64,000 bases of DNA from an uncultured bacterium (GTDB lineage: Bacteria > Actinomycetota > Acidimicrobiia > Spongiisociales > UBA5794). The position numbers and the translations under genes were made by a program. The notes under the pieces were generated by a model. The model was not told where the DNA came from and made no database searches. It saw nothing but the letters and a program-made list of their open reading frames with translations. Every line of letters begins with the position of its first letter. The first letter of the stretch is position 1. This document shows positions 5,305 to 61,711 of this stretch, piece after piece. The DNA lies in contig CAVZRA010000007.1 in the NCBI GenBank assembly GCA_963777645.1, forward strand, positions 11,580 to 75,579, given 5' to 3'.

Positions 5305-6600
5305 CTATCGACCGCCGGCGAGACGGACGGTACGACGATGTCGCAGCCAGAATGCCTCGGCACCAGTGGCGACGGCGATGACGAGGCCGAGCAGGGCCAC
5401 AGTTATCGGCTGATCGTGCGCCGTGTTGGCCACGAGAACTACGAGAGCGCCTGCACAGCCGGCGACGCCGAGACCGCTGATGAGCCGGCTCGCCTTGATT
5501 CTTCGCCATTCCTTCAATGCCGAGGCGTTGGTGGCCCCAAACACGATCAGGAAGATCGAGCTGGCGAGAGCCGAGATCTCCGTGATGTTGAGAGTGTTGG
5601 CCAGGATGAGTGCCGCGCCCGACGTGATCAGCAGGCCAACCGGCTCCGACCATACGTTGCGCTCGAGCGCCGGCGGGAGCTCACCTTCGCGTGCAATCTG
5701 GTAGCTGAGCCTCGCCGAACCGTAGAGGGTCGCATTGATCGCAGAGAAGGTCGCGAGCACAGCCGAGCTGGCGACGATCAGGAAACCGGCATTGCCGAGC
5801 CCCGGTTTGGCCGCTTCCGCTAGTGCGAAGTCGGCTGCTTGCCTGACTTGATCCGGAGACAGCGAGCCGACGGTGATGGCGGCAATGGCGACATAGAGAA
5901 CCACGACCGAGCCAACCGCGATGTAAAAGGCACGAGGGAGGGTGCGTTCCGGGGCGCGGATGTCCTCTGCAGTGTTTGCGATGAGCTCGAAACCCTCATA
6001 GGCCACGAACACGAGCATTCCTGCTGCGGCGATCGCCGGCACCGACGGCCACGTACTCAATGCAAGTCTGGAGGTATCGACTGTGGTCGTTCCCACGATG
6101 CCAACGAAGAAGAGCATGATCAGCTTGAAGACGACAATTGCCGTCTCGGCCCTGGCCACCATCGCCGCGCTCAACAGGTTCAGTCCGGTGGGGACGAGAA
6201 TCGCGGCACTGATGAGAATGTGGCGCAACCAGGGGGCGACGTCACCACCCGATGCGAAGAACGTAGCCGCGTAACTGGCGAAGGCGACTGCGTATAGCGA
6301 CAGGGTCACGAGATAGCCGAACCACAACAGACTGTTGAGGGCACCGGTGAGAGTGCCGACTCCAAACGCCTTGTCTACGAACACGACACTGCCGCCCCGA
6401 CTTGGGAACGCAACCGAGAGGCGGGCATAGGAAGCGGCAGTCAGCAGTGCAATCGCACCCGCTATCAGGAAAGCAAGCGGAGCACCACCAGCTGCTTTGG
6501 TGGCAACGACACCGAGGACGGCGAATATCCCGCCACCCACCATGCCGCCGATACCGATGGCGACCGCTCCCCAAAGCCCGACTGATCGCTGTTGTGTCAC
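5305..6600 (-). CDS. APC-superfamily amino acid/polyamine permease
   Basis: 431 aa with about 12 predicted TM segments. N-terminus GLWGAVAIGIGGMVGGGIFAVLG is typical of APC permeases. The GTG start overlaps the zwf stop (GTGA). Confidence 0.8.
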   Translation of the reverse strand: MTQQRSVGLWGAVAIGIGGMVGGGIFAVLGVVATKAAGGAPLAFLIAGAIALLTAASYARLSVAFPSRGGSVVFVDKAFGVGTLTGALNSLLWFGYLVTLSLYAVAFASYAATFFASGGDVAPWLRHILISAAILVPTGLNLLSAAMVARAETAIVVFKLIMLFFVGIVGTTTVDTSRLALSTWPSVPAIAAAGMLVFVAYEGFELIANTAEDIRAPERTLPRAFYIAVGSVVVLYVAIAAITVGSLSPDQVRQAADFALAEAAKPGLGNAGFLIVASSAVLATFSAINATLYGSARLSYQIAREGELPPALERNVWSEPVGLLITSGAALILANTLNITEISALASSIFLIVFGATNASALKEWRRIKASRLISGLGVAGCAGALVVLVANTAHDQPITVALLGLVIAVATGAEAFWLRHRRTVRLAGGR

Positions 6601-7937
6601 CCGGGCACTTTATCCGGCCCTGCGCTGCCCGTCGCATACGGGATCGGGTCGGTCGTTGGGTCGGTGATGTCATCGACGATACGCCAGGCTTCCTCGACCG
6701 CGTCCTCGCGGGCGAACTGTGACCTGTCATCCGCCAGCGCGTCGTGGAGCACCCGCTCGTAGGCGAGCGGGATCCGGCCGAACACCTGGTCGTAGTCGAC
6801 GGTCAGGGGAGTCGTGGCGAGATCGAGGCCGTTGCCGGGGAGCTTGGTCTGCAGGACCAGGTCGACACCATCGCTCGGTCCGATACGGAACACAAGACGG
6901 TTCGCCTCGGGTGGCGTCGGGTCGGGGTCGAAGGGGAGCGGGGGGGATGGTAGGAATACGACCTCCGCCTTTGTGATCGTTCGATCGAGCGCCTTCCCTG
7001 CTGTGATCGAGAACGGCACACCGTACCAACGGGGAGTGTTGATGGCAGTCGTGAAGGAAATGAACGTGGCCGTCTTCGAGTCGGCCGCCACGTGCTTGAC
7101 ATCGCGATATCCCTCGTACTGCCCGTAGACGACCTCGTCGGGAGTGACGGCCTTCATGGCCCGCAGCACCTTCACTCGCTCATCGGCGTATGCGTCGGCG
7201 GCCGCTGTCACCGGAGCTTCCATGGCAAGCAACGACACAATCTGCAAGATGTGGTTCTGGACCACGTCCCTGACGACACCGAGCGAGTCGTAGAGCGCGC
7301 CCCGGCCGTCGACACCGAAGGACTCCGCCATGGTGATTTCTACCCGATCGATGTGGTGCCGGCTCCAGATGGCGTCAATGATCGGATTGGCGTACCGGAA
7401 GGTCAGCAGGTTCTCGACAGGCTCCTTGCCGAGAAAGTGATCAATGCGGAAGATCTTCTTCTCATCAATGACGCCGTGGAGGAAAGCGTTGAGCGCTCGT
7501 GCCGATTCCAGGTCGCGGCCAAACGGCTTCTCGACCAGCAACCGTGATCTCTCCAACAGTCCGACGGTGGCGAGGCTCCCGATGACCTTCTCGAAGAACG
7601 AAGGAGGGATGGCCATGTAGTGCAGGCACGCCCCGCTACCAACTGTGGCGGCGAGCCGATCAAATGTCGATCGGTCGTTGTAGTCACCCGAGACGTAGCT
7701 GAGCCGGCCGGTGAGCTGCTGGACAATCCTGCTATCGGGCTCGTCTATGGCTTCACCAATGGCCGCTGTGGCGTGTTTGGCGAGATCCTGATCCGTCCAG
7801 TCTTCGAGGGCGACGCCGATGATCCGCTGCTCGAGGTCGTGTCGCTCTTCCAACCTATAGAGCGCAGGGAAGAGCAGCTTCCTGGCCAGGTCACCGCTGG
7901 CGCCGAACAGCACGATCGTATCGATTGCCCTACTCAT
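6597..7937 (-). CDS. zwf: glucose-6-phosphate 1-dehydrogenase
   Basis: N-terminal dinucleotide motif VLFGASGDLARKLLFPALY. Active-site motif RIDHFLGKE. AGGAGGAA lies upstream of the ATG. The start overlaps the upstream GH15 stop (ATGAGTAG). Confidence 0.9.
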   Translation of the reverse strand: MSRAIDTIVLFGASGDLARKLLFPALYRLEERHDLEQRIIGVALEDWTDQDLAKHATAAIGEAIDEPDSRIVQQLTGRLSYVSGDYNDRSTFDRLAATVGSGACLHYMAIPPSFFEKVIGSLATVGLLERSRLLVEKPFGRDLESARALNAFLHGVIDEKKIFRIDHFLGKEPVENLLTFRYANPIIDAIWSRHHIDRVEITMAESFGVDGRGALYDSLGVVRDVVQNHILQIVSLLAMEAPVTAAADAYADERVKVLRAMKAVTPDEVVYGQYEGYRDVKHVAADSKTATFISFTTAINTPRWYGVPFSITAGKALDRTITKAEVVFLPSPPLPFDPDPTPPEANRLVFRIGPSDGVDLVLQTKLPGNGLDLATTPLTVDYDQVFGRIPLAYERVLHDALADDRSQFAREDAVEEAWRIVDDITDPTTDPIPYATGSAGPDKVPG

Positions 7938-10311
7938 TGATTCCTCCTATGGAGATCTGGTAGTCGATTCCTTCCCAGCCGGTGCTACGACGAATCGTAA
8001 ATAGGATCGAGCCTTGCTCCGGAAGGTCCGACCCGGGGATATCGATGTAGTGCATTCCGATGCCACTGTCGATGGTGTCTGCGTCGATCCGGGAAGTCCA
8101 ATTGTCAGTTGACCACCGTATGGTCGCCGATTCGGGGAGTTCAATGCGCAACGGCACGCCCGACTCGATGTCTGTGATCTTGTGGTTGGGGCGCCAGAAG
8201 CGCCGCGACGCCGCTACCGGGTCGGCATGATGCCTGGTGACGGCTCCCGGTAGATCGAAGATCTCGTGATCGGCGACCGATCGCAGCAGTTTGACGTACT
8301 CAGCGTGGGCCCACACCAGTGGTCTGGCGGATCCGGAAGCGGATCCAAAGACGAGCTCGCGTTCCGGTATGTCGGGTGCGTCCCAGATCTGCTCCGGGAT
8401 GAGCCCACTCGGCTCCGCCATGATCTCGATCGCTTTGATGAGCTCAGAGACAAGCGTGGTGTTGCCTGCCGCCAGCTCGTAGTGGGCGCGTTCGCCGGTC
8501 AGCAACGGCCATACTCGACCCCGGCCGGTGCCGTCGAAGGGACGACCGTCGTCGTGCTCGCCGTATCCGTCGCCGGTGTAGCGACGCCAACCCGGCCCGT
8601 AGTCGAACTCCTCGCGGAGGGTTGCGTCGATCACGGCGATGGTGTTGACGATGCGTGGATCATCCGGTTCCCTGAGGCCAAAGCGCACCAGAGCAAGCGC
8701 GTCCGGGCTCACCACCGCAGAAGCGGCCGCGACGTTCTGTCCCGCGGGCCGGTTCTTGATGCTGATCGATCCACCGACCGGCGCCTCGATGTTGTCGGTG
8801 GCACCGATCCTCACGTAGTAGCCGGGCACACCGACCACGGTGGCAAGGTCGGTGCCAGTTGCGTAGCACCATGCCTCGATGTGGGCATCCCAGCAGTCCG
8901 CCGTCTCCCTGAGGTACCGGGCAACTGTTCGCTCGTCACGGTGCTCTGCCATTTCGGCGGCGACAAGGAGGGCGGCGATCTCAGTGGCGAGAGAGAAAGG
9001 CGAGTAGCCACCGTCCTCCTCCCAGCGATCCTGGCCGGTGACCGGGCCGTTGGCCACGATGTAGCCAGCGGCAGACCGAACCATAGGCCAATAGCGGTCA
9101 CGCGCCTCCGGGGCGTCGAGGGCGCCTGAGGCTTTCGCCAGGTCCAGTAACAGAACCGGGAGCGCCGTTTCGTCGATCTGCACCCCACCCCAGTAGGGAG
9201 TCCCGTCGAGCCACATGTTCTGGGCCCAATGCCCGTCGGCTTCCTGGGTGGCCCGGAGATACGAGAGAGCGCGGAGGCCCTCAGCGTGTGCCCCGATAGC
9301 GAGTAGCCCTCCCGCCGTCTCAACGTGATCTCGTGGCCACACGAGGTGGTAGCCACCGAGATCCTGGTCACCCATGGAGTCCCCCCACGGGATGGAGAGC
9401 GAGGCAATCAGGCCACCTGGGAACGTAGCAGCTTCGTGCGTTGCCAGCACCGCTGCGCTCGTCCTTGCCATGGCACGATCCGACGGCAAGGTGATACTTC
9501 GTTGCCAATCCTCCCATTGGTTGCGGTACACGTCGAGGGCGGAGGAGAAGCCGTCACGCAGGGAGGCGATTGCGTGATGAGCAGCCTCAGCAGGTGCCCG
9601 ACCGAAGCCCATCGCTACGGTGAACCGCCCGTCGCATGCATCCAGGTCGGGCTGTAAGGCGATCGCAACATTGCCGTCGTCTGCGCGCTCCCATCGCCAG
9701 GTGAAAGCCTGATTGTGATGCAGGTCCTGCCAGGCATCGGAGGTGCCGACGTACCCCACCGAGCGAGCCACCACCGGGGTGTCGACGGCGCATGCGATTG
9801 CGATGTCGTCGCGTTGGGCGAACACCATTTCTGTTCCCTTGTGGACTTCGACCCAGGCCGAGTTGCCGGCTCCCTGATTGCCGAGGTGGGGGGCCGCCAG
9901 GAATACAACAGTGTGCTCACCCGGCCCGGACTCCACGGCGTCGTAGCAGACGTCGATCAAGACGACCGGCCGGATCGGGTCGGAAATGTAGCGCTGAGTG
10001 ACCTCGAAGGTCCCGCCGGGATCCGATAATTCGACGGCGAACGCCGGGATGCCGGGATCAATCGCCCTCGTGTGATGGGCGCAGTCGCGCTTCTCGTCGA
10101 TGAATCGCCCGTCCGGAGTGATCATCAGAAACTGTGCGTCACGAACCGCAGCCTGATCGATGCGTGGGTAGTAGATCTCGTTGAGGATGCCGTGGCTCAA
10201 GGTGAACCACACCGGGCTTGCCGCCGAATGGGCCGAGCCGACAGCTTCCTTTGCGCTTGACGTCCAGCGCGCGTCTATTCCGGGCGCTCCGGGGGCGTAT
10301 CGAGGTGACAT
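7930..10311 (-). CDS. glycoside hydrolase family 15 (glucoamylase/glucodextranase- or trehalase-like)
   Basis: Start trimmed to MSPRYAPGAPGIDARWTSSAKE (ATG at 10311, GGGGGA upstream). GH15 catalytic-domain motifs GGYHLVWPRDHVETAGGLL and RWEEDGGYSPFSLATEIAAL. N-terminal beta-sandwich and a C-terminal extra domain. Confidence 0.8.
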   Translation of the reverse strand: MSPRYAPGAPGIDARWTSSAKEAVGSAHSAASPVWFTLSHGILNEIYYPRIDQAAVRDAQFLMITPDGRFIDEKRDCAHHTRAIDPGIPAFAVELSDPGGTFEVTQRYISDPIRPVVLIDVCYDAVESGPGEHTVVFLAAPHLGNQGAGNSAWVEVHKGTEMVFAQRDDIAIACAVDTPVVARSVGYVGTSDAWQDLHHNQAFTWRWERADDGNVAIALQPDLDACDGRFTVAMGFGRAPAEAAHHAIASLRDGFSSALDVYRNQWEDWQRSITLPSDRAMARTSAAVLATHEAATFPGGLIASLSIPWGDSMGDQDLGGYHLVWPRDHVETAGGLLAIGAHAEGLRALSYLRATQEADGHWAQNMWLDGTPYWGGVQIDETALPVLLLDLAKASGALDAPEARDRYWPMVRSAAGYIVANGPVTGQDRWEEDGGYSPFSLATEIAALLVAAEMAEHRDERTVARYLRETADCWDAHIEAWCYATGTDLATVVGVPGYYVRIGATDNIEAPVGGSISIKNRPAGQNVAAASAVVSPDALALVRFGLREPDDPRIVNTIAVIDATLREEFDYGPGWRRYTGDGYGEHDDGRPFDGTGRGRVWPLLTGERAHYELAAGNTTLVSELIKAIEIMAEPSGLIPEQIWDAPDIPERELVFGSASGSARPLVWAHAEYVKLLRSVADHEIFDLPGAVTRHHADPVAASRRFWRPNHKITDIESGVPLRIELPESATIRWSTDNWTSRIDADTIDSGIGMHYIDIPGSDLPEQGSILFTIRRSTGWEGIDYQISIGGINE

Positions 10312-10417
10312 CAGCGTTCCCCCAACACCTTCGCGATGTTCGTGGTGGGTATCTCCAGGCTGAGACTGTCTTCGATGGTGTCGGCGGCGTAGCTCATGGG
10401 ATCTCCTCAGGTTTGCA

Positions 10418-10702
10418 TCACGAGGCTTGTCGATGCTCTTCGACTCTGATCCACTCGACGAAGGAGGCAACGTCTCCGCTGCGCTCATCGGCGATGTAGG
10501 TGTGAGCCCACTCCTCGATCTGCTTATCGGTGAACCCCTGACTGTGTAGCAACTCTCGAGCCTCGTTGGCGAGCAACTCCGAGCCCTCGAGGTGAGAAGC
10601 GTCCGGCAGCCGGCTCTTGACGCCAGCTTGGTCTGGGTGCTCTGGCTTCAAGCTTTCCATTTCGGCGTCCTCTCTTGGATTTGCTCTGTCCATCACCGTC
10701 AT
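10418..10702 (-). CDS. hypothetical small acidic protein
   Basis: 94-codon ORF with no recognisable domain. It sits upstream of the GH15-zwf-permease operon on the same strand. Confidence 0.35.
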   Translation of the reverse strand: MTVMDRANPREDAEMESLKPEHPDQAGVKSRLPDASHLEGSELLANEARELLHSQGFTDKQIEEWAHTYIADERSGDVASFVEWIRVEEHRQAS

Positions 10703-17081: not shown

Positions 17082-17086
17082 TTGGC

Positions 17087-17509
17087 ATGGTGAACGCAAC
17101 GGACCGCGTGGGATACGTCTTGAAACGGGCGCAATACGCTTTACGGCGGAGAATGGATGAAGCCCTGGCCGTGGTCGGTTTGACCACACCGCAATACGCA
17201 GTGCTGGCAGCGCTCGAAGAAGAGGCCGGTCTGTCCAATGCCGAGTTGGCGAGGAGATCGTTCGTTACGCCTCAGTCGATGATCAGGGTTGTCGCCGGGC
17301 TCGAGCAGCGTCAACTCATCACAAGGCACCGACATGAGGGGAACGCCCGGGTACTCGACGCCGACCTGACCCGCCGTGGTAGGGCCGTGGTATCGCAAGC
17401 ACACACGATTGTCGCCGAGATCGAATCTACCATGCTGGCTGACGTTGATCCCGGCGACATCACGACCGCTACGAGGGCTTTGGCTGTGATGGCCGCAAAC
17501 CTCGAGTAG
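17087..17509 (+). CDS. MarR family transcriptional regulator (probably leaderless mRNA)
   Basis: MVNATDRVGYVLKRAQYALRRRMDEALAVVGLTTPQYAVLAAL...LSNAELARRSFVTPQSMIRVVAGLEQRQLITR is a winged HTH. No SD is present; a -10-like TATACT lies 6 nt upstream of the ATG. Confidence 0.85.
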   Translation: MVNATDRVGYVLKRAQYALRRRMDEALAVVGLTTPQYAVLAALEEEAGLSNAELARRSFVTPQSMIRVVAGLEQRQLITRHRHEGNARVLDADLTRRGRAVVSQAHTIVAEIESTMLADVDPGDITTATRALAVMAANLE

Positions 17510-18118
17510 CTACTGCTCCATGGACGGGTTCCATACCTCCCATACCTTGCCGACCAGATCGGGCCCCGGCTTGAGCGTCAACTGACCGGGCTCCCACCCG
17601 GCAGGTGTGGCTTCTGCTCCACCCGTTTCACGAACCAGCTGGAAAGCGCTTATCTGGCGGATGGTCTCGGCGAGTTTGCGTCCGACCGGCGGCGTGAGCA
17701 CTTCCATGCCCTGGATCACTCCGTCGGGATCGATGATGAACCTGCCGCGTAGCTCGATGCCCTGGTTCTCGTCCCACACGCCGTAGGCACGGCCGATGTT
17801 GCCCGCCTGATCTGAAGCCATCGGGAACGGCACACCACCGTCGACCATCTTGGTCAATTCGTAGTCGTTCCACATCTTGTGAACGAAGTGGCTGTCGACA
17901 CTCACCGAGATGACATCGACACCGAGGTCTTGGAGCTCTTGATACTTGTCGGCGACCGCCGACACTTCTGTCGCTCAGACGAAGGTGAAGTCACCCGGAT
18001 AGAAACACAGCAACACCCACTTGCCGACGTGATCCGACAGCGATACGGAGGTGAAGCCACCATTGTGATAGGCGGGGGCCGTGAAATCGGGCGCCTTCTG
18101 CCCTACGGTCGCAGTCAC
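17510..18118 (-). CDS. peroxiredoxin (AhpC/Prx1 type) with in-frame TGA (17975-17977) at the peroxidatic Cys position; candidate selenoprotein
   Basis: ORFs 17975..18247 and 17510..17965 share one frame and are separated only by TGA. Read-through gives KAPDF...[15 protein letters not shown][U][14 protein letters not shown]...[20 protein letters not shown] lies 5 nt upstream of the GTG at 18118. An alternative ATG is at 18217. Confidence 0.75.
17947..17964 (-). promoter_or_regulatory. bacterial SECIS-like hairpin downstream of the in-frame UGA
   Basis: In mRNA sense: UGA-N10-ugucggc[GGUC]gccgaca. This is a 7-bp GC-rich stem with a GGUC tetraloop occupying nt 21-24 counted from the U of UGA. 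Confidence 0.55.
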
Positions 18119-18299
18119 TCGGACCTCCTTCAGGGGCTCAGCGGACTGTTCATTCGACGGTTTCGGATCTTCCCCGACGATCCCGGTGACCCGGGCACAT
18201 CCGAGTTGATCTGCCATTGTTCGTCTCCCATTCTCGGGACCGTCCAAGCTTAACTCACACCTTGCTGCTGCAAGATTCGACCCCGTCTAGCCTTGCCGC

Positions 18300-25257: not shown

Positions 25258-26631
25258 GTGGTGACACGACGAATAGTTGTAGTGGCGAACCGGCTCCCCG
25301 TGTCCTGGGACGGGGACAACTGGGTGACGAGCCCCGGTGGCCTGGTGCGCGCTCTCGAGCCCGTCCTACAGAAGGTGGGCGGCTCCTGGGTAGGTTGGTC
25401 CGGCAACACCGGTGAGGCGCCCGAGCCGTTCGAACATGACGGCATCGAGCAACGCCCGGTCTCGCTGACCGAGGAAGAGCTCGAGGACTTCTACTACGGA
25501 TTCTGCAATAGCGCACTATGGCCGCTCTATCACGATGCGGTGATCTCCCCCGAATTCCATCGTCATCACTGGCGGCCGTACCAGAGGGTCAATAGGCGCT
25601 ACGCCGGCGTCGCGGCCGATACGCTCCAGGCAGGAGATATCGCCTGGGTGCAGGATTACCAACTCCAGCTCGTGCCAGGCATGCTGCGCGAGCTACGCGA
25701 CGACGTCACCATCGGCTTCTATCTGCATATTCCGTTTCCGCCCATCGAGCTCTTCTCCAGATTGCCGTGGCGTCGCCAGGTCATCGAGGGTTTGCTGGGA
25801 GCCGATGTGCTGGCCTTCCAAACCAGGACAAGCGTGCAGAACTTCGCCCGCGCCGCCAGGAGGTTTGGCGGCGCCAAAGCCATCGGCCGCTACGAGCTGG
25901 AATGGAATGGGCGTCTCATCAAGCTGCAACGAGCACCGATCGCGATCGACACCGACCACTTCGAACGGGTGGCGCGGTCGGACTCGGTGCAGCAGCGGGC
26001 GAGCGAGCTGCGCCACGAGCTGGGAGATGTCGAACACATCATCCTCGGCGTCGACCGGCTCGATTACACCAAAGGCATCGACCTGCGGCTCAAAGCATTC
26101 GCCGGGTTGCTCGAGCGCACCGCAGATCATCCCCGTCGCTACGCGTTCGTCCAGGTGGCCGTCCCCAGCCGGGAGAACGTACTGGCGTACCAGGAGCTGC
26201 GATCCGAGATCGAGCAGCTGGTGGGGAGGATCAACGGCGACTTCGGCGTGCCGGGATGGTCTCCGGTCTCCTACCTGTACCGAAGCTTGCCGCTCGAGGA
26301 TCTGATCTCTTACTACGTGGCTGCGGATGTGATGCTGGTCACTCCACTGCGGGACGGGATGAACCTGGTGGCCAAGGAGTATGTGGCGTGCCGGCGTGGC
26401 CTGCCTGGAGTGCTGGTACTCAGCGAGTTTGCCGGGGCGGCCGAGCAGCTCAAATCGGCGGTGATCGTCAACCCGCACGATGTCGACAGCGTCACCGACG
26501 CCCTGCTTCAAGCTACCGAGATGAACTACGGCGAGGCTCGCATCAGGATGCAACGACTGCGCCGCACCGTGCAGCGCGAAGACGTTTTCAAGTGGGCAGG
26601 CGATTGCCTCGCGGAGCTCGAAGCTCTGTGA
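25258..26631 (+). CDS. otsA: alpha,alpha-trehalose-phosphate synthase (GT20)
   Basis: [27 protein letters not shown]-terminus. Also [35 protein letters not shown] and LSEFAGAA. Confidence 0.9.
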
Positions 26632-26640
26632 CGGACGCGG

Positions 26641-29600
26641 CTATTGGATGAGACGGAGCGCTCCCCGTAGCGCGATCCAGACCATTTCGGGCCGCTGCAC
26701 CAGCTCCCACTCGACCTCCCGGAGTGCCTTTGACAACTCAAAGGCAACAAGGAGCGCCTCAATGCTCTCATCTTCAGTGGGGAGCACAGGTGAGCCGGTG
26801 GCGGCTTCAACGTATGCGCCGACAAATCGCTCACCGAGCATCCGGTACCACCGCTCAGCATGAGCAACCGCATCGGGCCTGCCGGAGCTGCGGGCAGCCG
26901 CAAGCGCTGCATAGTGGAACGATCGAATCATCTCGGCGACGTCACGCAGCGGAGGTGCCTTGAGTCGTCGTTCGCTGATCGGCCGCGTGTGGTCGCCGCT
27001 GAGATCCAACATATAGAACTCGTTGTCGATCAAACGCAGCTCATCGAGCCGGTAGTTGCCGTGGATACGGGTACGTCGACCACTCGCCGGTACCTGTCGC
27101 ACCCGGTTGATCACTGTCAGCATCGCCGACTCCGCCCCGAGCAAGGTCTCCAGGTCGCTACGAACGTCGTCGGGGGCTTGCTCGAAGTTGTTGCGAATCG
27201 ACGTCAGTTCCTGTTTCACGCCGGCGCGCAGCGACTGATAGAGCGAGCGTTGATAGAGGCTGGTCACCGGGGCCGGGCGGAGTTCGGGCTCCTCGGTCTG
27301 GGTAGCGAGCGCTTGATGGAACTCTGCAGTCGTCACCCCGAGCGTTGTTGCGTACGCGAGAGTGGTGTCGAGCGCTTCCGAAACATCGGCTGCTGTCCGC
27401 GTGTCTTCGTTCAGCCAACCTGTGACCGGTACCTCTCCGGGTGCGGGCACGTCTCCGATCTGTTCGAGATAGGTGAGGCACAAGTCGCGGAATAGTGTCC
27501 ATGCAGTGATTTCGGGATCGAGGTTCTTCTGCATCATGCCGAGGCTGAACGTGTCCCGCGATTGGTATTCGAGCGCCCCGTAGACGGGGGAGAGGTTCTC
27601 GAAGCTGGTGCGATCGGTCAAGTAGCGGCGCAATTCCAGGTCGGGGTGCGTTCCGGGCTCGATGTTGCGAAATAGCTTGAGAGTGAGGTCAGGGCCATAT
27701 TGGATGAACGTCTCTCCCTGTGCCGTTTGTTGCAGACGGGGCATCGTATCGGCATCGCCGAGATCCAGATCTGCAACCCGGGCATGACTCCACACCGCGC
27801 CGGTGCGGCCGAGCATTTCCCGGCCTTCGACAATCGCCCCGTACAAGGCGAGGCAGAACTGAGGGTCGTATACGGCGTCGACGAGACATCGGGGGCCCTC
27901 GCCGTCGTCGATGAACGCCACGGTCGCTTCCTCGGGCAGCGATTCATCATCGGCCGATCGCAAGCTGAGCGGCATCACGTACCGCTGCGGCGGGCCGGTG
28001 ACGTACTCGATGTCGAGCAGCACGATCCAACCGGCGCGAGTTCCCTCGTCGTCGGCAATCGGGATCGCATCGAACGTCGATGCGCTCAGCCGCCGTTTGC
28101 CCCGGTCGGCGTACCAGACCTGGTGCTCCGCGTACTTGGCGAGGTGGCTGGCAAACGGGTGGTCACTGCTGAACAGCTCCTCGACCGGGCCATTGACCAT
28201 GAAGCTGTTCTGGTCACCGGGATCTGAGTCCTGATAGACAATTGAGAACCAGTAGTAGCCGTACGGGCTGAGGGTGAGCAGGTAGGGAAGGTCACCAATC
28301 CGGGGGAAATCGGTGTGACCGAGTAGCTCTACGGGGTGGGCACCCGCATGCTCGCGGAGATCGAGTTCGACGAACTGAGCATGCCTGCTCAGGTTTGCCA
28401 CCACCAGGATGGTCTCACCATCACCCTCACGAATGTAGGTGAGAACTCGATCGTTCTGAGGTTGTAGGAAGCGTATCGAGCCGCGGCCAAACACCGGATG
28501 ACGGCGGCGCCGCCTGATCATCCTTCTCGTCCACCAGAGCAACGAATTCGGATTGGCGTGCTCGGCCTCGACGTTCACCGTCTCGAAGTGGTACTGCGGG
28601 TCGACGACAACAGGCAGGTAGAGCGACTGTGGGTTTGCGGAGGAGAACCCCGCATTCCGATCGTTGCTCCATTGCATCGGGGTACGGACCCCCTCACGGT
28701 CGGCGAGGAAGATGTTGTCGCCCATACCCAACTCGTCGCCGTAGTACATGACCGGTGTCCCCGGCAGCGAGAGGAGCAGGCTCATCAACAGCTCGATCCT
28801 GCGCCGATCGTTGCCGAGAAGAGGAGCCAGCCGACGCCTGATCCCCAGGTTGAGCCTGGCGCGGCGATCTGGCGAGTAGGTTCGCCACATCAAATCCCGC
28901 TCCTCCTCGGACACCATCTCGAGAGTCAGCTCGTCGTGGTTGCGGAGGAAGATCGCCCACTGCGCGGACTCGGGAATGGCAGGGGTCTGTTCGAGAATGT
29001 CGATTATGGGGAGCCGGGTCTCTCGCTCGAGGGCGAGGTAGAGCCGGGGCATGAGCGGGAAGTGGAACGACATGTGGCACTCGTCGCCATCGCCAAAGTA
29101 GGCGACTGCATCTTCCGGCCATTGGTTGGCTTCGGCGAGAAGCATACGGTCCCCGTACTTCTCATCGATATGGGCCCGCAACGTGCGAAGCTCGGCATGG
29201 GTTTCGGGGAGGTTCTCTCCGTTGGTGCCCTCTCTCTCGTGGAGGTAGGGGATGGCATCGAGCCGCAGCCCGTCGACTCCCATGTCCAGCCAGAAGTCGA
29301 GCACATCGACAACTGCCTCCCTGACCTCGGGATTGTTCCAATTGAGGTCCGGCTGGTGAGAGAAGAAACGATGCCAGAAGTAGGCATCCGCCACCGGATC
29401 CCAGGCCCAGTTGGATGTCTCGGTGTCCTGGAAGATGATCCTGACATCCTGATACCGATCCGGGGTGTCGTTCCATACGTAGAAATCGCGTTCCGGTGAT
29501 CCGGATTCGGCACGTCGGGCGCGCTGGAACCAGGGATGCTGATCCGAGGTGTGGTTGATCACGAGCTCGGTGATCACGTACATACCCCGGGTATGAGCCT

Positions 29601-29880
29601 CGCTAAGAAAATGGCGGAATTCCTCGAGAGTTCCGTAGCTCGGGTGTACGTCGTAATAGTCGGCGATGTCGTAGCCGTCGTCGCGCAGCGGGGAGGGATA
29701 GAAGGGTAGGAGCCAGATCGCGGTGACCCCGAGCTGCTGCAGGTAGTCGAGCCTGCTTGTCAGACCGGTGAAGTCGCCGATGCCATCTCCGTTCGAGTCT
29801 GCAAAGGCTCTCACGTGCACTTCGTAGATGACCGCGTCGCGGTACCAACCGGGAGGACGATGGATCTGGACGTCTGACAT
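26641..29880 (-). CDS. treS: trehalose synthase fused to a C-terminal maltokinase-like (Pep2/Mak) domain
   Basis: Start trimmed to [26 protein letters not shown] (ATG at 29880). GH13 catalytic motifs [22 protein letters not shown] and [11 protein letters not shown]. The C-terminal ~450 aa resemble aminoglycoside-phosphotransferase-fold maltokinase ([16 protein letters not shown]). Confidence 0.85.
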
Positions 29881-29971
29881 CCGCCCAAGATTAGGGTCAG
29901 GGGCCGAGTGCTCGTCAACCCATCGTATGAAGGCACTAGTTTTAAGGGGTAGCGCGAGTAAGGAGTATGCG

Positions 29972-31549
29972 GTGTTGCAGCTGAACGGTATCGATCTGAA
30001 GAACGTCGGCACGGTGCACCACAATTTGTCTACACCGGCCCTCTACGAGGAGGCGGTTCGCCGTGGTGAGGCGATGCTCGGTCATCTCGGGCCGCTTGTG
30101 GTGAGCACCGGCAAGTACACGGGGCGCTCCGCCAACGACAAGTTCGTGGTTCGAGAGCCCTTCACCGAAGACATCATTTGGTGGGGCAAGATCAACAAGC
30201 CATTCGATCCGATCGACTTCGACAAGGTTCTGTACGGGCTCCGCTCTTATCTCCAGAACAAAGACATCTTCGTTCAGGACGGCTACGCAGGCGCCGACCC
30301 GAAATACCGGATAAGGGTGCGCGTCATCAGCGAGCATGCCTGGCACAGCCTGTTCGCCCGCAATATGTTCATACGGGAGTTCGATCCCGAAGTGATTGCA
30401 GCGTTCGAGCCGGATTACACAGTCATCCACTGTCCCAGCTTCCAAGCCGATCCCGAGCAAGAACACACTGCGAGCGAGGCCTTCGTCTTGCTCAACCTCG
30501 ATCGCAAGATGGTGGTGATCGGCGGGACAAGCTATGCGGGTGAGATCAAGAAGTCGATCTTCACCGTCATGAACTACTTGATGCCTATTCGAGGTGTGCT
30601 CAGCTTGCACTCTTCGGCAAACGTCGGCCCCGACGGGGATGCTGCAGTGTTTTTCGGTCTTTCGGGAACCGGCAAGACCACGCTCTCTACCGAGGCGGAC
30701 CGGGCATTGATCGGTGACGACGAGCTCGGCTGGAGCGACGAGGGTGTCTTCAACTATGAGGGCGGCTGTTATGCCAAGATGATTCGCCTGTCCGATGAAT
30801 CGGAGCCGGAGATCTACCAGACCACCCGTCGTTTCGGGACGGTGCTCGAGAACGTGACCATCGATCCGACGACCCGCCGTCTCGATCTGAGCGAGGCATC
30901 GACCGAGAACACACGCGGGGCGTATCCGATCACCCACATCGACAATATCGTTGCAGGCTCGATGGCCGGCCATCCGAAGAATGTCTTCATGCTCACCGCC
31001 GATGCATTCGGGATACTGCCACCGATTGCCCGGCTCGATGAGGCTCAGGCCCGATACCATTTCATCTCCGGTTACACCGCCAAGGTGGCAGGGACTGAGC
31101 GCGGCGTGCAGGAGCCGCAAGCGACCTTCTCTGCATGTTTTGGGGCACCATTCATGCCGCTTCATCCGACGGTCTATGCGGACCTGCTCGGCAAGAAGAT
31201 CCGCGACCACGACGTACGAGTGTGGCTGATCAATACCGGTTGGACGGGAGGGCCCTACGGCGTGGGGACGCGATTCAAGATTGCGAACTCCCGGGCCGTG
31301 ATTCGGGCCGCACTCAATGGCGATCTCGATCGTGTCGAGTATCGGAGCGACCCGGTGTTCGGTTTTGAGGTACCCGTGGAGTGCCCGGGGTTGCCCATCG
31401 AGTTGTTGACTCCCCGAGAGACCTGGGGTGATCCGAACGAATACGATGCCAGAGCGGCGGAGCTGGCGGAGCTCTTCCGAGCCAACTTCGAGGAGTTCGC
31501 AGAGCTGGCGGGTGCCGAGCTGGCAGCCGCCGGGCCGGTCGCAGGGTGA
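29972..31549 (+). CDS. pckA: phosphoenolpyruvate carboxykinase (ATP)
   Basis: AAGGAG lies 6 nt upstream of the GTG at 29972. Motifs [12 protein letters not shown] and the kinase-1a loop [13 protein letters not shown]. Confidence 0.9.
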
Positions 31550-37445: not shown

Positions 37446-38084
37446 TCAAACGATCTTGCGGTCCGAGGCCCATCGCGCCAACTCGTGGCGACTGGAGAGC
37501 TGGAGCTTGCGCAGCACCGAAGAGACGTGCGTCTCCACAGTCTTGATCGAGATCGACAGCTTGCGGGCTACCTGTTTGTAAGCGAGGCCGCGGGCAATGA
37601 GACGCATCACCTCCTGCTCGCGAGGGGTCAGCTGGTCGAGCTGAGAATCGGCGGCGGGGGAGATCGCTCCTCCGAACGCATCGAGCACGAATCCGGCAAG
37701 ACGTGGCGAGAACACGGCATCTCCTTCCGCAACACGCCGTACCGCGTCGGCAAGCTCGTCCGGAGCTATCGACTTGGTGACGTAGCCCCGGGCTCCGGCC
37801 CGGATCATGGCGATCACATCATCGGGAGAGTCCGAGACCGAGAGCGCCAAAAAGCGGGTGTCCGGGTGTGTCTGGAGAACGTTCGAGATCACGGTGACGC
37901 CACCACCGCCGGGCATGTGCACATCGACGAGTACCACTCCGGGCCTGGTCTCCCGGATAAGCGTGATTGCCTCGTCGACGTCGCCTGCGATGCCCACGAT
38001 GGGGAAGTGCTCGCTGAGCTCGCTCCGGACCCCCGAGAGGAAGAGCTCATGGTCGTCTACGAGAAAGAGTGTCGTCTCAGTCAT
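37446..38084 (-). CDS. NarL/LuxR-family response regulator (LiaR-like)
   Basis: LFLVDDHELFLSGV...VVLVDVHMPGGGG receiver domain. C-terminal LTPREQEVMRLIARGLAYKQVARKLSISIKTVETHV HTH. Confidence 0.9.
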   Translation of the reverse strand: MTETTLFLVDDHELFLSGVRSELSEHFPIVGIAGDVDEAITLIRETRPGVVLVDVHMPGGGGVTVISNVLQTHPDTRFLALSVSDSPDDVIAMIRAGARGYVTKSIAPDELADAVRRVAEGDAVFSPRLAGFVLDAFGGAISPAADSQLDQLTPREQEVMRLIARGLAYKQVARKLSISIKTVETHVSSVLRKLQLSSRHELARWASDRKIV

Positions 38085-39291
38085 GGTTTCCTCGCGGTAG
38101 CTTCAGGCGGACCTCGGTGCCTTCACCGGGCTCGCTGATGATTTCCGATTCGCCGCCTTGCCGTTTCATACGTTTCCTGAGAGAGTTCTCGATGCCGTGG
38201 CGGCCGTCGGGTATGGACTCAGGATCGAAGCCGCACCCCTGATCGGTCACGAACACCTCGGCGGCATCGTCGCGTACCTCGGCGAACACAGAGACCCGCG
38301 GCGCCCCAGAATGCTTGGCTGCGTTGGTCATCGCCTCGCCTGCCGCGGCGACCAGCGACGCCGTCCGCTCTGTCATCGGCATGTCGCCCACCACAACGAC
38401 TTCAACTGGGACATCGTGTCTCGCTTCGACGTCGGTAGCGGTGGCCTCGAGCGCCTGACGGAGGCCGATCGTCGCATCGCCGTTGCGGGGACTGTACAGC
38501 CAGCTGCGCAGATCGCGCTCTTGTGCCCTGGCCAGGGTGACCATTCTCTTTGGGTCGTCGGTGCGCTGGATGAGCGCAAGAGTCTGCAACACCGAATCGT
38601 GGAGATGAGCGGCGACCTCGGTACGCTCATCTGCCAGGATCCGACTGCGTCTCTCCTCGCCCAGGTCCCGGATCAGCGAGGTCACCCAGGGGCCGAAGAT
38701 GATCATGAACCCGGCGCCGGTGAGTGCTGCTGCGGTAATGGCCGGCCCGAGAGACTCGATCGACGAGATCGCCGAGGAAAGGCTGGCGATGCCGGCGAGT
38801 AGGAGAAGTGCACCCACCACGATCCGGGTTCGGCTCGGGGCGAGCGCACCGGAGGTGGGCTCGAAGATGCTCGTCTTGTCCCACATGGCGGCGCCACCAA
38901 AGGCAAGCAGCGTGCCCGCCCAGACGACCGTGTCGCCGAACCAGAGATTCAGCCCGCGGAACAACGACAGCATGCCGAGGAAGATCACCACCAGGCCGAT
39001 CATCTGGCGGGTATCTGGTGGATCGGCTGCGGTGACTTCGTCGCCGGGCGAGGCTATGGCAGTGCCGAGCAAGTAGAGGACGACGCCGGCGCCACCTGCG
39101 AGGGAGAGCGAGACGAAAGCAGCGCGGACGTAGGCATCTGCAATCCCGAGCCGATCGGCGATGCCTCCCGCAACGCCCATGACGACCCGATCATCGGTGC
39201 GCCGCACGATGAAGTTCCTGACACGGTCGACCGTGCCGGGAGATTCGGTTTCAACTGTCGTTTCCGCTCTCATATCGCCGAATGTTGTCAC
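38077..39291 (-). CDS. PspC-domain-containing sensor histidine kinase (HisKA_3 type, LiaS-like)
   Basis: N-terminal PspC motif VVMGVAGGIADRLGIADAYVRAAFVSLSLAGGAGVVLYLLG. Several TM segments. H-box VAAHLHDSVLQTL. HATPase motif NAAKHSG...DQGCGF. It overlaps the regulator start by 8 nt. Confidence 0.85.
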   Translation of the reverse strand: MTTFGDMRAETTVETESPGTVDRVRNFIVRRTDDRVVMGVAGGIADRLGIADAYVRAAFVSLSLAGGAGVVLYLLGTAIASPGDEVTAADPPDTRQMIGLVVIFLGMLSLFRGLNLWFGDTVVWAGTLLAFGGAAMWDKTSIFEPTSGALAPSRTRIVVGALLLLAGIASLSSAISSIESLGPAITAAALTGAGFMIIFGPWVTSLIRDLGEERRSRILADERTEVAAHLHDSVLQTLALIQRTDDPKRMVTLARAQERDLRSWLYSPRNGDATIGLRQALEATATDVEARHDVPVEVVVVGDMPMTERTASLVAAAGEAMTNAAKHSGAPRVSVFAEVRDDAAEVFVTDQGCGFDPESIPDGRHGIENSLRKRMKRQGGESEIISEPGEGTEVRLKLPRGNHD

Positions 39292-39393
39292 AGTGTGGGG
39301 TGTCGGACAACTAGGGGTCTCCCCGGGAACCCCGGGTGTACTTCAGGGTAGGTTCAGGGTATTACCCGATATGGCGGGAACCGTTCGGGTGTC

Positions 39394-40626
39394 ATGCTTG
39401 CAGATATGGAAACGACACAGTCAACACAACAGCAACCGCCGCCGCAGATACAACGTCCCCGGCTGGAGCGACTGCGTAGCGACCGCGTGATCGCCGGTGT
39501 CGCTTCTGGATTGGCCCGTCACCTCGGGATCGATGCTGCCTGGGTGCGGATCGGTTTTGTCGTGATCACCCTGTTCGGAGGCGCGGGCGTGCTCGCATAT
39601 CTCATCGGATGGATCGCCATACCGGAAGAGGGCGAATCGGAGTCGGTGCTCACCACCAAGACCCGCTCGAACTCGCATCTGGGCAGCTGGGTGGGGCTCG
39701 GGCTCATAGGGCTTGCGGTGATGATCCTGATTGGCAACACCGGTCTGATCGACGGCGATATCGTCTTTGCCGGCGGGCTGATAGTCCTCGGCATCCTCCT
39801 TTACCGCGGTGACCTTGGCGAATTCGGTAAGCGCAGGACTCACGATGGCGTGGAGGTTCAACCGCCACTGTCTGCGGCAACCCACTCATACGAGGAGACG
39901 CCGGTCGACACCGCAAGTCTCAGTCTTGACGAGATGCCCACGGTTGCTCCTCCAACCGAGCCACCGGTTGCGCCACCTCCTCCGGCCCCCGCCTTCCGGC
40001 CTCGTCCACCCCGCCCCCGCTACTCCTCGGTCCTGGGAAGGCTCGCCTTTGCCAGCTTGCTCATCGTCGTCGGCGTGATGGGTGTGGGCCAATCGCTGGG
40101 ATGGTGGGATCCGCTCGCCCGGCATTATGCGGGAGCTGTACTTGTCGTGCTCGGCGCGGCGTTGCTTGTCGGGTCCTTGTTCGGGCGAGCGCGGTGGTTG
40201 ATCGCCCTTGGCGTTGTCATCAGCCCATTGCTGTTCGGTGCCGCAATTCTCGATGTCCCGATCGAAGGTGGCATGGGCAGCCCGGTGCACTCACCGTCGA
40301 CGGTAGCTGAGCTGTCTCCGGAGTATCGGCTAGTTGGTGGTGAGATGATCATTGACCTAACCGATCTCGAACTGGCGACAGGCGAGACGTATCAGATGGA
40401 AGCAAGCGTTGCCTTCGGCACGCTGAAGATCCTGGTTCCCGATACCCTCGGCGTCAGTGTGGCTGCTGAGGTGGATGCCGGCCAGATCGTCGTCGACGGA
40501 GCCAACGTCGAGGAGGGTTTGAATTTGGACAGCAGCAAGGTCTATGAAGGGACTGGCATGATCGACATCGACGCACACGTCGGTTTTGGCGAGTTCGACA
40601 TCTACGAAGTGGAGAACCGACCATGA
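39394..40626 (+). CDS. PspC-domain membrane protein with LiaF-like C-terminal domain
   Basis: PspC motif VIAGVASGLARHLGIDAAWVRIGFVVITLFGGAGVLAYLIGWIAIPEEG. Pro-rich linker, TM block and a beta-rich C-terminus (GEMIIDLTDLEL...GTLKILVPD...). It is divergent from the PspC-kinase gene. Confidence 0.75.
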   Translation: MLADMETTQSTQQQPPPQIQRPRLERLRSDRVIAGVASGLARHLGIDAAWVRIGFVVITLFGGAGVLAYLIGWIAIPEEGESESVLTTKTRSNSHLGSWVGLGLIGLAVMILIGNTGLIDGDIVFAGGLIVLGILLYRGDLGEFGKRRTHDGVEVQPPLSAATHSYEETPVDTASLSLDEMPTVAPPTEPPVAPPPPAPAFRPRPPRPRYSSVLGRLAFASLLIVVGVMGVGQSLGWWDPLARHYAGAVLVVLGAALLVGSLFGRARWLIALGVVISPLLFGAAILDVPIEGGMGSPVHSPSTVAELSPEYRLVGGEMIIDLTDLELATGETYQMEASVAFGTLKILVPDTLGVSVAAEVDAGQIVVDGANVEEGLNLDSSKVYEGTGMIDIDAHVGFGEFDIYEVENRP

Positions 40627-46200: not shown

Positions 46201-46274
46201 GGGCGTTTAGCTCAGTTGGCTAGAGCGCCTCCCTTACAAGGAGGAGGTCACTGGTTCGAGTCCGGTAACGCCCA
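46201..46274 (+). tRNA. tRNA-Val (anticodon UAC)
   Basis: Manual cloverleaf. Acceptor stem GGGCGTT/AACGCCC. D arm GCTC-AGTTGGCTA-GAGC. Anticodon stem CCTCC/GGAGG with loop CTTACAA. T arm ACTGG-TTCGAGT-CCGGT. Discriminator A. CCA is not encoded. Confidence 0.9.
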
Positions 46275-46508
46275 CGCGGACCTGCTGGGGTAGGCCTACT
46301 GGCAGTTTCCTATCTGCTCAAATGACGCGCGCCAGGATCTGGCCCGCAGACGAAAGTGGACTAGACAACAGACATCGTCTGCCGCTGTAGCGCTGAACAT
46401 GTGGCTGAGAAGTCGTGGCTGAGCCAGCTGATGTTGCGCTGCTCCTGGGGTTTGGTGCTGACCCGGAAGCGAACCCCGGGATACCGGGCGCACATGTCTT
46501 GTGTCGGA

Positions 46509-52941: not shown

Positions 52942-53583
52942 TCAGGTGGAGAGACCGATCGGGCACGACACTCCCGTACCACCGATACCGCAGTACCCGT
53001 TCGGGTTCTTCGCCAGGTACTGCTGGTGGTACTCCTCGGCGTAGTAGAACCTCGGGGCTTGCTCGATTTCGGTGGTGATGCCCTTGTAGCCGGCATTACG
53101 GAGTTCTTCGGCGTACCGGTCTCTGCTGGCGACCGCCGCGGACCACTGGGCGGCGTCGGCTGTGAAGATGGCGGATCGGTACTGAGTTCCCACGTCGTTG
53201 CCCTGGCGCATTCCCTGGGTGGGATCGTGGCCCTCCCAGAAGACACGAAGCAGCTCTTCGTAGGTGACCAGTTTGGGATCGTATGCCACCATCACCACTT
53301 CGCAGTGACCGGTGCGGCCGGTGCATACCTCTTCGTAGGTGGCGTTCGGAGTGAAGCCGCCCTGATAGCCGACCGCCGTGGAGAACACGCCGGGCGTCTG
53401 CCAGAACATGCGCTCGGCACCCCAGAAGCAACCCATGGCAAAGTATGCGATCTCGATGCCATCGGGGAAAGGCGGCACCGTCGTGTTCCCGTTGACGTAG
53501 TGGGTTCCGCTGACGGGTATGGCGTCCTCATGGCCGCGCAGTGCGGTATCGGGTGTCGGCATGTCTGCGTTTCTCAGCCACAT
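52942..53583 (-). CDS. msrA: peptide-methionine (S)-S-oxide reductase
   Basis: Start trimmed to MWLRNADMP (GGAGGAG upstream). Catalytic motif [13 protein letters not shown]. Also GHCEVV and HQQYL. Confidence 0.9.
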
Positions 53584-53749
53584 CGTGATCTCCTCCGGTT
53601 CATAAGACCAAAGATAGGCAAGCACAATCAGTGTTCTCGACGATCCTCTCAAATGGTCGATCTGCGAGACAAGCAAACGATCTATTAACGCTCTTCGATA
53701 GTCGCCGGGCCGATTCGGTATCCTGAGCGGGCGTCAACCGGGAGAGGAC

Positions 53750-61273: not shown

Positions 61274-61305
61274 GAGAGAGCCCCCGGGATCCCGGGGGCT
61301 CTCTC
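61274..61305. terminator. perfect 32-nt palindrome; bidirectional terminator for the REC-PAS gene and rnpB
   Basis: gagagagcccccggg-at-cccgggggctctctc (15-bp arms). It lies directly 3' of the RNase P RNA and 22 nt after the REC-PAS stop. Confidence 0.7.
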
Positions 61306-61307
61306 CT

Positions 61308-61711
61308 GTGAGCCCGGTTGTAAGCCGGATTCTGTATCCGACCGTCGGGTGTAACGCCGACGGTCGGCGACGACCATCTATCTGGGCCCGTCATTGCTGA
61401 ACGGGCTCGTGCGGCCTACCTGGGATTGATGAGCGGGCAACTCGCTCCCTGCTTGGCCTTGCTCCTGGTGGGGTTTGCCGAGCCGCCCCGGTCACCCGGG
61501 ACGCTGGTGGTCTCTTACACCACCGTTTCACCCTTGCCTGTGTGTGTCCCATGCGGGCCACACCGTGGGCGGTCTGCTCTCTGTTGCACTTTCCGTCGGG
61601 TCACCCCGCCTGGGTGTTACCCAGCACCATGCCCTGCGGAGTCCGGACTTTCCTCGGTCGGTGCGCCGAACAAGTCGGCGAGGCCGAACGCGGTCGTCGG
61701 CCGGGCTCGTC
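61308..61711 (-). ncRNA. rnpB: RNase P RNA, bacterial type A
   Basis: Minus-strand reading contains the universal elements GAGGAAAGUCCGGACUCC (61655-61638), GGGUAACACCCAGG, GGAAAGUGCAACAGA, GCAAGGGUGAAACGGUGGUGUAAGAGACCACCAG, GGCAAACCCCACC, AGCAAGGCCAAG, AGAUAGAUGGUCGUCGCC and ACAGAAUCCGGCUUACA. P1 pairs gagcccgg (61708-61701) with ccgggctc (61317-61310). The ends are approximate. Confidence 0.9.

Follow-up and report, generated by a model that had tools for sequence, protein, structure and literature searches.

The hairpin found directly 3' of an in-frame UGA on the minus strand of the window (the whole 64-kb stretch of DNA analysed, from an uncultured salt-marsh bacterium) is, with a probability that we put at about 0.9, the bacterial SECIS element of a PrxU-type selenoperoxiredoxin gene, the UGA of which is read as selenocysteine (Sec). 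It is almost certainly the standard bacterial UGA-to-selenocysteine signal in a known selenoprotein, PrxU; what is new is the uncultured salt-marsh bacterium that carries this textbook-type element, and the mechanism itself is known. The peroxiredoxins have been counted among bacterial selenoprotein families since the work of Sohling et al. 2001 and Zhang et al. 2006 (PMC1794560), and the original description of PrxU concerned Eubacterium acidaminophilum (Sohling et al. 2001, as cited in PMC13188914). The element leaves the existing knowledge of recoding unchanged and is unsurprising to a specialist; it marks the uncultured bacterium as a probable selenocysteine user. A SECIS at this UGA had been proposed from the DNA letters of the window, and the proposal is now supported by the identity of the gene as prxU, by covariation across 78 orthologous loci, and by the decay of the hairpin in Cys-encoding forms.

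The prxU Gene and Its Product

The gene, its signals, and the parts of the hairpin occupy the following positions:

17510..18217, minus strand: prxU, encoding a 235-aa selenocysteine peroxiredoxin, with the in-frame UGA read through (from translation and NF040737)
18225..18229, minus strand: putative ribosome-binding site GGGAG, 7 nt 5' of the prxU ATG (inferred from inspection of the sequence)
18217-18215, minus strand: start codon ATG of prxU (from translation)
18197-18199, minus strand: codon of Cys7, the conserved N-terminal Cys of the window PrxU
17975..17977, minus strand: in-frame UGA at the peroxidatic position of PrxU, PGDFTFV-U-ATE (predicted Sec codon)
17965..17974, minus strand: spacer GCGACAGAAG between the UGA and the hairpin, 10 nt, codons Ala-Thr-Glu plus G
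17958..17964, minus strand: 5' arm of the SECIS upper stem, UGUCGGC (from the fold and covariation with the 3' arm)
17954..17957, minus strand: apical loop GGUC, with G22 and U23 counted from the U of the UGA (from sequence and alignment)
17947..17953, minus strand: 3' arm of the SECIS upper stem, GCCGACA (from the fold and covariation)
17512-17510, minus strand: stop codon of prxU (from translation)

The 235-aa protein is a member of the PrxU family, with a predicted peroxidase function. It scores 383 bits against the NCBIfam equivalog NF040737 (peroxi_PrxU; cutoff 270), the match covering profile positions 3-232 of 233, and the runner-up NCBIfam model, AhpC (TIGR03137), gives 196 bits, below its cutoff of 272. 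The Pfam domains recognised in the protein are AhpC-TSA (4.5e-40) and 1-cysPrx_C. The UGA stands for the peroxidatic residue of the PxxxTxxU motif (P-G-D-F-T-F-V-UGA), a motif that has been described for Sec peroxiredoxins (PMC13188914). It joins two pieces of the reading frame with the same GC3, 0.76 in the half before and in the half after the UGA.

The PrxU of E. acidaminophilum and the NF040737 family have the same AhpC/Prx1-type fold, with Sec at the peroxidatic position of PxxxTxxU. This likeness is drawn at the protein level; the gene analysed here belongs to an uncultured salt-marsh bacterium with 62% GC. The fold and the active-site motif are also common to the Cys-type AhpC and typical 2-Cys peroxiredoxins (TIGR03137); however, the window gene carries UGA where AhpC has TGC, Thr occupies the canonical C-terminal resolving Cys position (EATPAGW), and an N-terminal extension bearing a conserved Cys is present.

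Anatomy of the Hairpin and Its Occurrence by Chance

The stem forms a perfect 7-bp helix composed of five G-C and two U-A pairs, and the codons that encode it translate as V-S-A-V-A-D. As stated in the sequence-only reading, it begins at the 11th nucleotide after the UGA, following a spacer of 10 nt, and the tetraloop takes nt 21-24 counted from the U of the UGA. The 18-nt hairpin by itself has a free energy of -11.2 kcal/mol and is present in the minimum-free-energy (MFE) fold of both the 61-nt and the 141-nt contexts, the former folding at -21.4 kcal/mol (z = -2.4; 3 of 200 shuffles equally good).

The same reading regarded so perfect a palindrome as unexpected by chance, and this holds only in part. 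Perfect hairpins with a 7-bp stem and a 4-nt loop are not rare in the window, 16 being observed versus 6.2 expected; it is the position at the catalytic codon of a peroxiredoxin, together with conservation and covariation in 78 loci, that takes this hairpin beyond chance. When TGA, a gap of 8-13 nt, a perfect stem of 6 bp or more, and an NGUN loop are required together, this is the sole site in the window, counting both strands, with 0.36 expected by chance. Taken alone, this uniqueness is weak evidence, so the case rests on the gene context and on comparison. The over-representation of 7-bp/4-nt palindromes is a window-wide property, with further examples at 6753, 33430, 50533, 61281, and 62161, and some of them may be terminators.

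Conservation and Covariation Among TGA-Encoding Orthologues

The orthologue scan covered one genome per species and returned 80 loci (L001-L080) from Chloroflexota, Acidobacteriota, Desulfobacterota, Gammaproteobacteria, Planctomycetota, NC10, Acidimicrobiia, and others; the nearest reference genome showed 92% amino-acid identity. The motif was found in 78 of the 80 loci, to which the orthologue counts below refer and which, together with the window, make up an alignment of 79 sequences (A2). All 78 loci have TGA at the peroxidatic codon and an identical hairpin register. The length of the spacer, 10 nt, is invariant in the whole alignment, with third codon positions within it free to vary. 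The seven stem pairs are complete in 61 of the 79 sequences, and at least four contiguous pairs adjacent to the loop are present in every one, with 27 distinct stem-loop variants among the orthologues. The loop reads GGUC in 70 sequences, including the window, and AGUU in the remaining nine. G and U at its second and third positions are invariant (79/79), and the mixed loops GGUU and AGUC never occur, which means that loop positions 1 and 4 covary as a pair.

Covariation was counted on eight pairs, the seven of the stem and the pair of loop positions 1 and 4, in the 79 sequences. Standard pairing was found in 95.9% of cells, compared with 84.4% in shuffled data and 32-75% when the partner was slid. 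The covariation score of 0.310 versus 0.081 for shuffles was reached by none of 500 shuffles, and changes on both sides were seen in five of the eight pairs (68 cells). Two stem pairs take all four Watson-Crick combinations: the second (21-36; GC 28, AU 13, UA 13, CG 12) and the fifth (24-33; GC 58, AU 10, UA 7, CG 2). The loop-closing pair is GC in 68 and AU in nine sequences. The covariation of the second pair even includes an amino-acid switch from Asp (GAC/GAU) to Glu (GAG/GAA), which is compensated at the third base of the opposing Val/Ile codon. The covariation among orthologues that the sequence-only reading had named as a check is thus present, the stem being kept through compensatory changes. 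The alignment represents a clean natural covariation data set for the presumed SelB-binding hairpin, with the outer loop pair included.

The palindrome could also be thought of as a by-product of the V-S-A-V-A-D/E peptide and of a GC-rich codon bias, devoid of any function in RNA. The peptide SAVA[DE] is indeed conserved, first and second codon positions leave four of the eight pairs with little or no freedom to vary, and the surplus of 7-bp hairpins in the window (16 vs. 6.2) points the same way. However, variation in the stem falls on third codon positions and is compensatory, with all four Watson-Crick pairs at two positions. Synonymous codon entropy is lowered exactly at the hairpin codons, to 0.5 bits at Ala+6 and Val+7 and 1.2 bits at Ser+5 and Ala+8, compared with about 1.6-1.9 bits at the remaining four-fold codons of prxU. 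AT-rich relatives keep the hairpin as UUUCAGC-AGUU-GCUGAAA. Cys forms with similar peptides (SAVAS in L083, SAVAD in L081) have broken or shortened stems, and a control helix constrained by amino acids pairs equally well with no covariation (0.036 vs. 0.038). We consider an origin in the peptide and codon bias highly improbable.

Folding of the orthologues gave a more mixed picture. The sequence-only reading had expected the hairpin in their MFE structures, and at least four of its pairs were indeed present in the 60-nt MFE fold of 57 of the 79 TGA-form sequences; the other 22 preferred a competing helix. The latter pairs GCGACCG, or GCGAC(C)G, of the spacer with CGGUCGC (17947-17974 of the window, minus strand; A2 columns 10-16/26-32). 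It was rejected as a conserved element, as it shows no covariation (0.036 vs. 0.038), and its pairing in 89.6% of cells results from bases fixed by the protein. The lower helices of the window MFE fold, in which the UGA is included, were likewise rejected, as they are paired in 51-76% with no double-sided changes. Since neither the lower nor the competing helices covary, the conserved element is the upper stem-loop alone, and as such it is comparable to the "minimal SECIS" of E. coli. The RNAalifold consensus of the 54-nt alignment retains only the top four pairs, and for this reason the full structure of 7+1 pairs was counted explicitly.

Decay of the Hairpin in Cys-Encoding Homologues

DNA of Cys forms was obtained for 12 loci, 11 of them independent (L081-L092), all with TGC or TGT at the codon equivalent to the UGA. 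The equivalent 18 nt have a mean energy of -4.0 kcal/mol in Cys forms and -9.5 kcal/mol in Sec forms (Mann-Whitney p = 1e-5), and ten Cys-form loci have at most five contiguous pairs adjacent to the loop. A perfect 7-bp stem (UCUCGGC/GCCGAGA) is found in L091 (601-1395, protein P0058; TGC), with a GAUC loop that lacks GU, and L081 and L085 contain remnants of 5 and 4 bp, respectively. Judged by their sequences, these three stems look like relic SECIS elements left after Sec-to-Cys conversion. A full stem and a GU loop (GGUC/AGUU) occur together in none of the 11 independent Cys-form loci. The same palindrome in Cys-encoding orthologues, which would have spoken for a role unrelated to recoding, was therefore not encountered, and the hairpin is mostly degraded there.

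These data also bear on a role of the hairpin without SelB, such as in ribosome pausing or mRNA stability. Ribosomes could be made to pause by any stable hairpin that closely follows a slow codon, yet this one is strictly tied to TGA and decays in Cys forms, and its loop G and U, the bases reported as recognised by SelB in E. coli (PMC8659212), are invariant in 79 of 79 sequences. The chance that the hairpin works without SelB appears minimal.

Comparison with Known SECIS Elements

In the bacterial SECIS (bSECIS) model, an upper stem of 4-16 bp carries an apical loop of 3-9 nt with G at one or both of its first two positions; the loop lies 16-37 nt from the UGA, and the MFE does not exceed -7.5 kcal/mol (PMC13188914, Fig. 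2). The window hairpin lies within all these numerical limits, with a 4-nt loop, 7 bp, GG, a distance of 17 nt (the 10-nt spacer plus the 7-nt 5' arm), and -11.2 kcal/mol. It agrees with the model also in its location within coding sequence, just 3' of an in-frame UGA for which homologues have Cys, and in its conservation, as orthologous selenoprotein genes show compensatory changes. Pairing of the outer loop bases is common in the bSECIS model (PMC13188914), and the paired bases N1/N2 of the bSECISearch consensus are seen here as the G..C/A..U covariation. In comparison with the loose bSECIS consensus, the prxU SECIS is far more invariant across phyla, with only GGUC or AGUU in the loop and a register fixed in 79 of 79 sequences. 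The hairpin also fits the description by Itoh et al. of a 6-8-bp stem with a conserved G approximately 20 nt downstream of the UGA (PMC4605307). Rfam gave no hit over the hairpin, either at the gathering threshold or at E <= 10, and it may hold no model of in-frame bSECIS elements.

The SECIS of E. coli fdhF provides a close point of reference. A 46-nt fdhF sequence (TGACACGGCCCATCGGTTGCAGGTCTGCACC...) was searched in E. coli genomes and found at 100% within fdhF in 5419 of 5426 of them, which places the GGUC loop of E. coli fdhF at nt 22-25, with G23 and U24. The GGUC loop with G23/U24 at nearly the same spacing, cited for fdhF in the sequence-only reading, proved accurate, with a shift of 1 nt. 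G23 and U24 have been reported as SelB contacts, a bulged U17 is required in the upper stem, and the minimal upper stem-loop spans nt 15-31 after the U of the UGA (PMC8659212). Both elements are situated in coding sequence directly 3' of a Sec UGA, their apical tetraloops are identical, the upper stem-loops measure 17-18 nt, and the first stem base follows the UGA by 11-12 nt. In contrast to fdhF, the loop G and U of the window lie at nt 22 and 23, 1 nt nearer the UGA, the stems of the window and of the orthologues have no bulged U17 (that of the window being a perfect 7-bp helix), and the prxU set shows no conservation of a lower helix containing the UGA. The host gene also differs, a peroxiredoxin here and a formate dehydrogenase there. 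Lacking the bulged U17 and with the loop 1 nt closer, the prxU hairpin is a bSECIS in the general sense and not a copy of the fdhF type.

Proposed Decoding of the UGA

By analogy with the established bacterial pathway, SelB would bind the hairpin and Sec would be inserted at the prxU UGA. As the ribosome nears the UGA at 17977-17975, the 7-bp (functionally 8-bp) stem would present G22 and U23 of the loop, to be contacted by the C-terminal winged-helix domains of SelB, which would bring Sec-tRNA(Sec) together with GTP. The 10-nt spacer and the 5' arm would position the SelB complex at the A site, so that the UGA would be decoded as selenocysteine instead of causing termination, yielding a 235-aa peroxiredoxin with a peroxidatic Sec. 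The search of the 64-kb window with ARAGORN, four Pfam batches, and one NCBIfam batch revealed none of selA, selB, selD, or tRNA-Sec, and the Sec-decoding trait of the organism is for this reason assumed; following the same analogy, selA, selB, selC, and selD are presumably encoded elsewhere in its genome. A screen of the window for further selenoprotein genes, based on the strict SECIS pattern and on a scan of in-frame TGA and GC3, pointed to prxU only.

Annotation of Relatives, Expression, and Strain Variation

The search for protein homologues covered 5.8 billion proteins (P0001-P0120). The closest relatives, 89-97% identical, are C-terminal fragments of 151 aa, that is, genes cut at the UGA by gene callers, which is an annotation artefact. 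Most full-length relatives (about 235-240 aa) read FTFVWATE, one reads FTFIGATE, and a minority are true Cys forms with FTFVC[AGT]TE. W or G at the UGA position is a mistranslation by a gene finder that switches the genetic code on short contigs. Recognition of the SECIS matters mainly for annotation, as otherwise the gene is reduced to a 151-aa fragment or receives Trp or Gly at the catalytic residue, and such mis-annotation is the state of most PrxU relatives in public protein collections.

The many homologues recorded with W, and the one with G, might be read as a sign of an alternative genetic code in which UGA stands for Trp or Gly, with the hairpin playing no part. However, TGA closes 32 of the 48 high-GC3 reading frames in the window and is thus an ordinary stop codon there, and a crude scan of the window for in-frame TGA gave no other convincing case. 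A peroxidatic Trp or Gly would kill the peroxiredoxin, and the W and G calls stem from the code-switching gene finders mentioned above. An alternative genetic code is not the explanation, and we assign it next to no probability.

Metagenomes of salt marsh, soil, and sediment contain the same DNA stretch. In two salt-marsh metatranscriptomes, contigs match it at 100% across 17476-18222, and one of them runs across the UGA and the hairpin, which indicates that prxU is transcribed in situ. A variant contig, approximately 91% identical, shows 19 differences over 17783-17986 and none in 17945-17980. Third codon positions account for 14 of the 17 differences listed within prxU and for 10 of the 13 listed 3' of the UGA; the latter bias argues that the region 3' of the UGA is translated and remains under purifying selection.

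It might be supposed that the SECIS is a relic in an organism that has lost the Sec machinery, so that translation would end at the UGA and the gene would be a pseudogene in decay or the source of no more than a 90-aa fragment. The window contains neither sel genes nor tRNA-Sec, and the closest relatives appear in public databases as nothing more than the 151-aa C-terminal fragment; both facts would suit such a loss. Nevertheless, the truncated entries are the annotation artefact caused by the UGA, and many homologues carry W or G instead. The frame 3' of the UGA contains 155 intact codons with GC3 of 0.76, and the protein encoded downstream is 89-97% identical to its relatives. Transcription of prxU, the predominance of third codon positions among the strain differences 3' of the UGA (10/13), and the unaltered UGA and hairpin in the variant strain likewise speak against a relic. 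Loss of the machinery is in our opinion very unlikely, and a functional SECIS at a UGA read as Sec remains the preferred explanation.

The N-Terminal Cys and the Gene Neighbourhood

PrxU proteins have an N-terminal extension of approximately 35 aa, the conserved Cys of which (in the context G-C-A-R-P/V-T-G) occurs in 75 of the 79 TGA-form sequences, and the canonical C-terminal resolving position (EATPAGW motif) is Thr in 72 of them. On the basis of these sequence patterns, it may tentatively be suggested, more as a doubtful possibility than as an expectation, that PrxU recycles via a selenenylsulfide between the active-site Sec and the N-terminal Cys7 and not through a C-terminal resolving Cys. 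If true, this would constitute a resolving mechanism of peroxiredoxins shared across phyla, of which we found no description, although it may already be in the literature. It would moreover be coupled to an unusually invariant SECIS, with a two-base G-U platform on an 8-bp stem.

A convergent gene for a MarR-family regulator, at about 17084-17509 on the plus strand, ends one base before the prxU stop codon. Its product shows weak similarity to the OhrR, Rv0880, and SlyA models and may act as a redox regulator of nearby genes. In some bacteria MsrA contains selenocysteine; the MsrA encoded at 52942-53676 (minus strand) has an N-terminal extension of about 74 aa and no in-frame UGA. The window also contains a bacterial RNase P RNA of class A (61305-61709, minus strand; 260.9 bits) and a tRNA-Val(TAC) at 46201-46275 on the plus strand. 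Carbohydrate and trehalose genes occupy 6597-10488 and 25258-30024 and encode G6PD, glucodextranase/GH15, an OtsA-like GT20 protein, and a TreS-Mak-like protein of 1127 aa in which an alpha-amylase-family part is fused to a maltokinase N-terminal cap domain, a set that points to an Actinomycetota-like organism. Finally, the cluster at 37446-40626, which encodes a LuxR-type response regulator, a PspC-domain histidine kinase, and a divergent PspC-domain protein, resembles a module for envelope stress.
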